Assembly: GCA_951406725.2 (NCBI GenBank)
Contig: OX597814.1
Span: forward strand, 101,060,001 to 101,124,000
Length of the DNA: 64,000 nt
Origin: Octopus vulgaris
Taxonomy: Eukaryota
Reading direction: 5' to 3'
Part shown: one piece after another, positions 34,184-36,032 of the stretch
Layout: each line of letters begins with the position of its first letter
Position numbering within the stretch: position 1 is the first letter of the stretch
Translations under genes and position numbers: made by a program
The notes under the pieces: model-generated
Database searches by the model: none
What the model was told of the DNA's origin: nothing
Seen by the model: the letters and a program-made list of their open reading frames with translations, nothing else

Positions 34184-34286
34184 CCATCAGAGCATCACAA
34201 CAAATCACAGCACATACCCAAGGCACACAGAGCTGTGCTCGGTAGTGAAGTGAAAGCACGCTATAAAAATAAAAATAAAACTACTG
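32241..34286 (+). mobile_element. Dong/R4-like non-LTR retrotransposon, 5'-truncated and apparently young (copy 4)
   Basis: Uninterrupted ORF to 34183, 103-bp 3' UTR, and (AAT)n on both sides. Confidence 0.96.
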
Positions 34287-36032
34287 AATAATAATAATAA
34301 TAATAATAATAATAATAATAATAATAATAATAATAATAATAATAATAATAATAATAATAATAATAATAATAATAATAATAATAATAATAATAATAATAAT
34401 AATAATAATAATAATAATAATAATAATAATAATAATAATAATAATAATAATAATAATAATAATAATAATAATAATAATAATAATAATAATAATAATAATA
34501 ATAATAATAATAATAATAATAATAATAATAATAATAATAATAATAATAATAATAATAATAATAATAATAATAATAATAATAATAATAATAATAATAATAA
34601 TAATAATAATAATAATAATAATAATAATAATAATAATAATAATAATAATAATAATAATAATAATAATAATAATAATAATAATAATAATAATAATAATAAT
34701 AATAATAATAATAATAATAATAATAATAATAATAATAATAATAATAATAATAATAATAATAATAATAATAATAATAATAATAATAATAATAATAATAATA
34801 ATAATAATAATAATAATAATAATAATAATAATAATAATAATAATAATAATAATAATAATAATAATAATAATAATAATAATAATAATAATAATAATAATAA
34901 TAATAATAATAATAATAATAATAATAATAATAATAATAATAATAATAATAATAATAATAATAATAATAATAATAATAATAATAATAATAATAATAATAAT
35001 AATAATAATAATAATAATAATAATAATAATAATAATAATAATAATAATAATAATAATAATAATAATAATAATAATAATAATAATAATAATAATAATAATA
35101 ATAATAATAATAATAATAATAATAATAATAATAATAATAATAATAATAATAATAATAATAATAATAATAATAATAATAATAATAATAATAATAATAATAA
35201 TAATAATAATAATAATAATAATAATAATAATAATAATAATAATAATAATAATAATAATAATAATAATAATAATAATAATAATAATAATAATAATAATAAT
35301 AATAATAATAATAATAATAATAATAATAATAATAATAATAATAATAATAATAATAATAATAATAATAATAATAATAATAATAATAATAATAATAATAATA
35401 ATAATAATAATAATAATAATAATAATAATAATAATAATAATAATAATAATAATAATAATAATAATAATAATAATAATAATAATAATAATAATAATAATAA
35501 TAATAATAATAATAATAATAATAATAATAATAATAATAATAATAATAATAATAATAATAATAATAATAATAATAATAATAATAATAATAATAATAATAAT
35601 AATAATAATAATAATAATAATAATAATAATAATAATAATAATAATAATAATAATAATAATAATAATAATAATAATAATAATAATAATAATAATAATAATA
35701 ATAATAATAATAATAATAATAATAATAATAATAATAATAATAATAATAATAATAATAATAATAATAATAATAATAATAATAATAATAATAATAATAATAA
35801 TAATAATAATAATAATAATAATAATAATAATAATAATAATAATAATAATAATAATAATAATAATAATAATAATAATAATAATAATAATAATAATAATAAT
35901 AATAATAATAATAATAATAATAATAATAATAATAATAATAATAATAATAATAATAATAATAATAATAATAATAATAATAATAATAATAATAATAATAATA
36001 ATAATAATAATAATAATAATAATAATAATAAT
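34287..36032. repeat. (AAT)582, 1,746 bp, no interruption seen
   Basis: Direct reading; the array begins immediately after the 3' UTR end ...AAAACTACTG. Confidence 0.95.

Follow-up and report, generated by a model that had tools for sequence, protein, structure and literature searches.

The window examined here, i.e., the whole 64-kb stretch of Octopus vulgaris DNA that was analysed, contains a perfect (AAT)582 array of 1746 bp (34287-36032, + strand) directly at the 3′ end of a 5′-truncated non-LTR retrotransposon copy, and within the assembled sequence this array is a true length outlier. We assign a probability of roughly 0.6 to the view that the array owes its length to slippage expansion by the host or to a long target that existed before the element arrived. 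The array is an isolated case of outlying length that ordinary causes are enough to account for, and nothing in these data favours a novel reverse transcriptase (RT) reading over host expansion. The element beside it belongs to a known class, of which it is a new and truncated representative, and it sits in the known target of that class.

An uninterrupted AAT array of outlying length

The array was delimited by using a period-3 run scan and TRF, and zero interruptions were found over its length as assembled. The repeat unit reads AAT on the sense strand of the element, the window contains no N, and both array junctions are clean and in phase. At the left junction, the first array base adjoins the end of the 3′ UTR of the element (...AAACTACTG, ending at 34286), and the stop codon (34181-34183) is located 103 nt upstream. 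Nine other pure AAT/ATT runs of at least 30 bp were found in the window, measuring 94, 70, 69, 67, 63, 61, 53, 50, and 43 bp; the array is 18.6 times as long as the longest of these. Pure runs of other 2-4-bp units (n = 62) had a median length of 47.5 bp and a maximum of 185 bp, and among all pure runs of 2-4-bp units in the 64-kb window, lengths jump from 185 bp to 1746 bp with none between. When an exponential tail was fitted to the other pure runs of the window, the probability of the array length was about 5e-34. The sequence-only reading had described a pure, uninterrupted array right after the 3′ UTR that was more than 10 times longer than the other AAT tracts, and these measurements (1746 versus 43-94 bp) bear it out. 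Frames encoding poly-N, poly-I, poly-L, or poly-Y over the array were considered as genes and rejected; they are by-products of the repeat.

The window also holds pure microsatellites of 10 unit classes, together with compound TAA-GAA, TAA-TAG, and TAA-CAA tracts. Directly 3′ of the array lies the head of a SINE-like dispersed repeat (36039-36308, + strand; 90.7% identical to 43610-43878 on the − strand), and several further copies of this repeat occur within the window. The head presumably resembles octopus tRNA-derived SINEs and, like the abundance of microsatellites in the window, would be in keeping with an octopod genome. Given that the right edge of the array is formed by a SINE-like head, a retroelement neighbour is present there as well as on the Dong side. 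In the SINE-like copy at 43091-43878 (− strand), a 184-bp inner part is present four times in tandem at 97% identity. Tandem duplications were also noted in 44450-44901 (225 bp, two copies, 100% identity) and in 60126-61165 (493 bp, 2.1 copies, 99% identity); these are either very recent events or assembly artefacts. At 31241-31455, long inverted arms, recognised by eye, flank an (ATA)20 then (CAA)n tract, and could be a foldback or MITE-like element.

The adjacent retrotransposon is a 5′-truncated copy

The Dong/R4-like copy next to the array spans 2047 bp (32240-34286); its extent was defined by alignment of relatives, by Pfam, and by upstream continuation elsewhere. All of its features lie on the + strand. 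It carries a single-ORF remnant of 647 aa (P0001; 32240-34183, with the stop codon TAA at its end) without a start of its own, followed by a 3′ UTR of 103 nt (34184-34286). The RT motifs QGD (aa 90-92) and YMDD (aa 129-132) fall within 32507-32635. A CCHC zinc knuckle (aa 459-476; 33614-33667) was found by motif scan, with Pfam zf-RVT just below cut-off. The motifs RPD...ID (aa 543-560) and KLSKY (aa 576-580), within 33866-33979, are those that we take to be restriction-like endonuclease (RLE) motifs, and the region containing them aligns with the C-terminal part of R2 proteins. P0001 matched Pfam RVT_1 at E 5e-22 over only profile positions 55-204 of 205, and its nearest solved structures were R2 proteins (PDB 9nl2, 9nl3, 9dou, and 8gh6; five sequences, E 1e-25 to 3e-11). 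In the 3′ UTR, a stem-loop is predicted at 34205-34253 (z −2.45; 2 of 200 shuffles were as good), and near 34263 this copy has one TAAAAA unit more than other copies. An Rfam scan of 31000-37000 returned nothing meaningful, with one chance match at E 0.5.

P0001 begins at about residue 566 of 1210-aa relatives, and a median of 557 residues is absent when it is compared with 105 relatives. Moreover, other copies, found in contigs of runs X1, X4, and X12, carry element sequence upstream of 32240. Given that about 557 N-terminal residues are absent and that other copies extend upstream, the copy is 5′-truncated in the middle of the RT. The adjacent ORF had earlier been described as having no stop or frameshift; the frame is indeed open for 647 codons, but the 5′ truncation makes it a remnant. 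The copy lacks the full-length ORF with 5′ UTR that would mark an autonomous active LINE. As a result of the truncation it cannot encode an active enzyme or be an active source, and it is a dead-on-arrival insertion. Truncation at the 5′ end is presented as the normal outcome of target-primed reverse transcription (TPRT) in the available text of PMC13580325.

Assignment to the Dong/R4-like elements

Many of the P0001 relatives among the matches listed are about 1200 aa long (1130-1300 aa for 106 of the 120 longer relatives listed), with full-coverage identity of at most 56-57% and one partial match at 70%. Because this copy has no N-terminus, N-terminal features were judged on the relatives. 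Among the full-size relatives (n = 106), the CCHC motif was present in 105 and RPD..D in 103, and both were invariant across seven aligned proteins. A C2H2-like pattern was found within the first 450 aa in 0 of the 106, and no APE family was among the precomputed Pfam domains of the relatives. P0001 itself has the features of RLE-type (R2 group) proteins, namely an RVT_1 domain with an intact catalytic motif, YMDD, a best PDB match to R2, and, as C-terminal sequence motifs, a CCHC knuckle and the PD..D endonuclease motifs. In the R4 clade, to which Dong belongs, elements have one ORF of about 1200 aa and lack both N-terminal zinc fingers and an APE domain. This ORF organisation was found in the relatives, and the (TAA)n insertion of that clade was found at this locus. 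The element can be called Dong/R4-like on the basis of anatomy and target rather than of a tree with named Dong/R4 sequences; no named Dong or R4 protein was present among the 240 homologs listed, and one supplement of PMC9115989 gave no match.

In the accessible parts of the literature, the RLE clades of non-LTR retrotransposons are covered by PMC4640811, Rex6 is placed in R4 by PMC3728117, and Dong is described as TAA-targeting by PMC3812793 and PMC2887409. PMC3812793 labels Dong as APE-type, at odds with the RLE motifs of this element. Passages on cephalopods report that Dong-R4 has expanded in coleoids (PMC8967140), that it is abundant and recently active in Octopus vulgaris, with 5 families and 1129 recent insertions (PMC13282606), and that it is not recently active in O. 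bimaculoides (PMC9115989).

Abundance and age of the family

Words of the element occurred in 24 runs listed, all of them contig sets, and at least half of the words were present in 20 of the 24. No RNA runs were among the runs listed, which has no bearing on expression. The element region (32226-34301) was compared with 4 of the 24 runs, comprising 75,748, 37,653, 4,719, and 22 contig records. In the two DNA-type runs, depth was about two- to threefold higher towards the 3′ end of the element, as expected from many 5′-truncated copies, and loose contig ends at the 3′ end continued into AAT. Summed depth was 0.8-3.0 million, compared with about 60 per single contig in X1; this depth ratio is not a copy number, and it suggests tens of thousands of family copies. 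Where 40,000 copies are used below, the figure is assumed and illustrative only.

The closest long contig differed from the copy at 16 of 1775 bases. Of 51 difference rows, 40 were examined. Differences to contigs of run X17 numbered 18, of which 9 are synonymous, 8 are non-synonymous, and 1 falls in the UTR; in the run that matched best, only 1-5 differences were almost fixed against this copy. With so few private differences the copy is young, and these sequence comparisons place it in a Dong/R4-like family of very high abundance. Run X17, which bears another species label, contains a 1778-base contig that is 99.1% identical to 32240-34014 at low, even depth. This contig ends within 3 bases of the truncation point of the copy, which is probably a coincidental graph break.

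Age was also set against the purity of the array. If all 18 X17 differences were taken as age, 12-15 interruptions would be predicted in the array, and zero interruptions would have a probability of about 1e-6. The use of this count as evidence against a tract laid at insertion was rejected, given that most of the differences are common to many X1 contigs; the 18 differences are mainly source-lineage variants. When the 1-5 seemingly private differences (possibly just one private change) were taken as age, 0-4.3 interruptions were expected, with P(0) of 0.014-1.

Flanking repeats and target preference

AAT is present on both sides of the copy, and sister copies continue from the 3′ UTR straight into AAT. 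The 5′ tract, identified by run scan, is a pure 94-bp AAT run (32147-32240, + strand) whose last base is common with the element; it is the other half of the target microsatellite. Related loci were then searched for sense-strand AAT runs of at least 15 bp within 200 nt, using the 25 of 80 loci that reach the C-terminus, some of which are near-duplicate contigs. Such runs, measuring 17-51 bp, were found in 10 of the 25, with 0.035 expected per 200 nt. Among the 15 loci without one, 3 end within 100 nt and 2 have TA runs. The view that this is a Dong/R4-like, young, AAT-targeting element, put forward in the sequence-only reading, is supported by the anatomy, by the few private differences, and by the flanking AAT together with the sister copies; the AAT runs at 10 of the 25 related loci likewise favour a preference for this target.

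Other repeats were also seen at the ends of related elements. Two relatives (L015 and L028) end in (TA)n of 14-22 bp instead of AAT, which suggests shifted target repeats within the group. Within the window, a more distant RLE-like 3′ fragment (28558-29226, + strand; 25-34% aa identity) ends in (ATAC)19, not AAT, and is possibly from a family with a different microsatellite target.

AAT tracts at other Dong-like copies in the window

Three further Dong-like copies in the window were used as controls. Copy B (15338-16857, − strand) is a 5′-truncated copy of another family (about 51-53% aa identity to P0001), with a 5′ tract of 70 bp and a 3′ tract of 67 bp followed by (GAA)16. Copy C (13838-15220, − strand) is old, with stops and frame changes (7 stops over 4 translated segments); the AAT run that it has kept at the 3′ end is nonetheless pure over 69 bp, which indicates that the host renews purity without RT action. 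Fragment D (13477-13755, − strand), a short 3′ piece of a third family, has a 3′ tract of 63 bp followed by (GAA)n. Across 13370-16945 (− strand), three Dong-like copies of different families stand head to tail with an AAT tract between each, and two of the tracts there are stacked compounds of (TAA)21-22 then (GAA)15-16.

The 3′ tract of 1746 bp at this copy was compared with those of 67, 69, and 63 bp at B, C, and D, which belong to other families; the remaining comparison tracts of the window were 94 and 70 bp at 5′ ends and 61, 53, 50, and 43 bp at solo loci. No second copy of the array-bearing family was found in the 64-kb window. In the 80 related loci (251,549 bases), the longest AAT run was 81 bp, these loci being short-read contigs that are unable to carry long arrays. 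A giant 3′ tail is not shown to be typical of Dong-like elements by this comparison, in which B, C, and D represent other families. The proposal that the RT made the kilobase array found no support, given that the copy is truncated and that three Dong-like 3′ ends measure only 63-69 bp.

Origin of the array length

We propose that a Dong/R4-like element may have cut an existing AAT microsatellite and primed reverse transcription there, and that reverse transcription would have halted after 2.05 kb, leaving a 5′-truncated copy with AAT on either side. The insertion anatomy is observed, and the TPRT steps would follow from what is known of the family. The right-hand tract would be host-made, having grown once the element was in place through replication or repair slippage that depends on tract length. 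Alternatively, the array could already have been long, with the element landing near its left end; the probability of landing within 94 bp of either end of a 1840-bp array is about 0.10. RT slippage at insertion may have contributed a few units, and would be unneeded for the kilobase scale. Four Dong-like 3′ ends in the window are flanked by AAT, and three of these have tracts of 63-69 bp, overlapping the 5′ and solo tracts; together with the 17-51 bp of AAT in which relatives end (10 of 25 loci), this supports a host origin. Moreover, the many pure and compound microsatellites of the window point to active host slippage. In the portions of the literature available, DONG is said to insert into (TAA)n that is already present and not to make microsatellites more abundant (PMC2887409), and the microsatellite mutation rate is described as climbing with length (PMC3812793). 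However, the sole giant run in 64 kb directly adjoins the youngest element at its 3′ end, on the side expected for RT-made repeats. The tails available for comparison, those of B, C, and D, come from other families, and the copy is young enough for an insertion-time tract to stay pure.

Among the competing accounts, an assembly or read artefact is unlikely and yet deserves some weight. The true tract would then be ordinary or much shorter, and would have been inflated through long-read stutter, or through an AAT-mediated join of two contigs, and then polished to purity. Total purity over 1746 bp and the empty gap between 185 and 1746 bp agree with this account, as do the high-copy repeats flanking the array (the element and the SINE-like head) and the near-exact 225-bp and 493-bp tandem duplications elsewhere in the window; STR length is also said to trouble long-read basecalling and correction in the accessible text of PMC12263367. 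On the other hand, the 64 kb contain no N and resolve many microsatellites at ordinary lengths, both array junctions are clean and in phase, and large natural AT-rich expansions are documented in humans (PMC8744678, as far as its text is available).

The two accounts in which the element made the array are both improbable. A source element might have been transcribed through a long downstream AAT tract, with TPRT starting far out in (UAA)n, so that a single pass would take in the long tail first and 2 kb of element after it. Sister copies pass from the 3′ UTR into AAT, so the (UAA)n of such a transcript would pair with the target, and at about 3.8 kb the cDNA as a whole would approach the length of a complete element (contigs of relatives are about 4 kb), which also fits the 5′ truncation. 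This account nevertheless presupposes a kilobase array in the source, which shifts the question to an earlier copy without answering it, and no sister copy with a long tail is observable. It is very doubtful that kilobase AAT was produced in a telomerase-like manner, with the RT slipping hundreds of times along a short (UAA)n tail and only then moving on into the 3′ UTR, even though the position, strand, and purity of the array would fit and the copy is young. The extra TAAAAA near 34263 resembles the slippage duplications described in new Alu inserts (PMC3415434). According to the available sections of PMC3415434 and PMC3747384, RT slippage has been shown with L1 acting on Alu tails, and a role for it in I factor, R2, and UnaL2 has been proposed. 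The comparison with telomerase is already in print for L1/Alu slippage, and is attributed also to I factor and R2 (PMC3415434, in the same sections). As described there, tails of 35-82 nt become about twice as long through slippage, which is taken to die down with increasing cDNA length (PMC3415434); the effects in print amount to tens of bases and limit themselves. The tracts at the remaining three Dong-like 3′ ends are of ordinary length, and the array is a single case (n = 1). When reiteration was modelled as geometric, a mean of 10-20 added units gave a probability of at most 1e-12 per copy for 560 units or more, and a mean of 50 gave about 0.6 such arrays among the assumed 40,000 copies; reiteration would have to run away on rare occasions, or the family would have to average about 50 or more added units. 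No report of kilobase AAT tails at Dong 3′ ends was found among the top-ranked literature matches, a set that mostly excludes subscription papers.

Significance and comparison with known systems

If the array is host-made or an artefact, the locus amounts to a microsatellite of exceptional length next to a common element, and is of little consequence. If 3′-biased kilobase tails were seen in copies of the same family, this would overturn the view, taken from the available text of PMC2887409, that Dong-type elements only use existing TAA repeats, and would provide a simple assay system for the origin of repeat-addition processivity in non-LTR RTs. Were runaway reiteration true, a natural retrotransposon RT would have repeat-addition processivity on the scale of telomerase, and the element would add to the AAT sequence available to it as target. 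Such positive feedback could partly account for the abundance of AAT in the host genome.

The closest known system is Dong of the R4 clade (Dong of Bombyx mori, DongAg, DongBg, and the octopod Dong-R4), which also has the RT followed by a CCHC knuckle and then a restriction-like endonuclease, and likewise shows the TAA-repeat target on both sides and 5′-truncated copies. This copy, likened to Dong by description rather than through a named Dong sequence, differs in its 1.75-kb 3′ tract. R2 has in common with it the RT-knuckle-RLE order and TPRT, but differs in its 28S rDNA target and its N-terminal zinc fingers, a pattern shown by 0 of 106 full-size relatives here.

Large expansions of AT-rich short repeats in humans can reach kilobase size. 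In those of ATTCT in SCA10 and of TTTTA/TTTCA in BAFME, one locus is likewise far past the usual lengths, although the unit and the organism are different and no phenotype is known here. The natural occurrence of such expansions is documented in the accessible text of PMC8744678, and many human expanded AT-rich repeats are traced to retroelement tails in that of PMC3812793. The proposed mechanism of tail slippage is common to L1 ORF2p on Alu A-tails, the (TAA)n of the Drosophila I factor, the (TGTAA)n of eel UnaL2, and RTE-generated microsatellites. In those systems tens of bases are added and the tail is not a pre-existing repeat target, whereas here 582 units would be required and the target itself is AAT.
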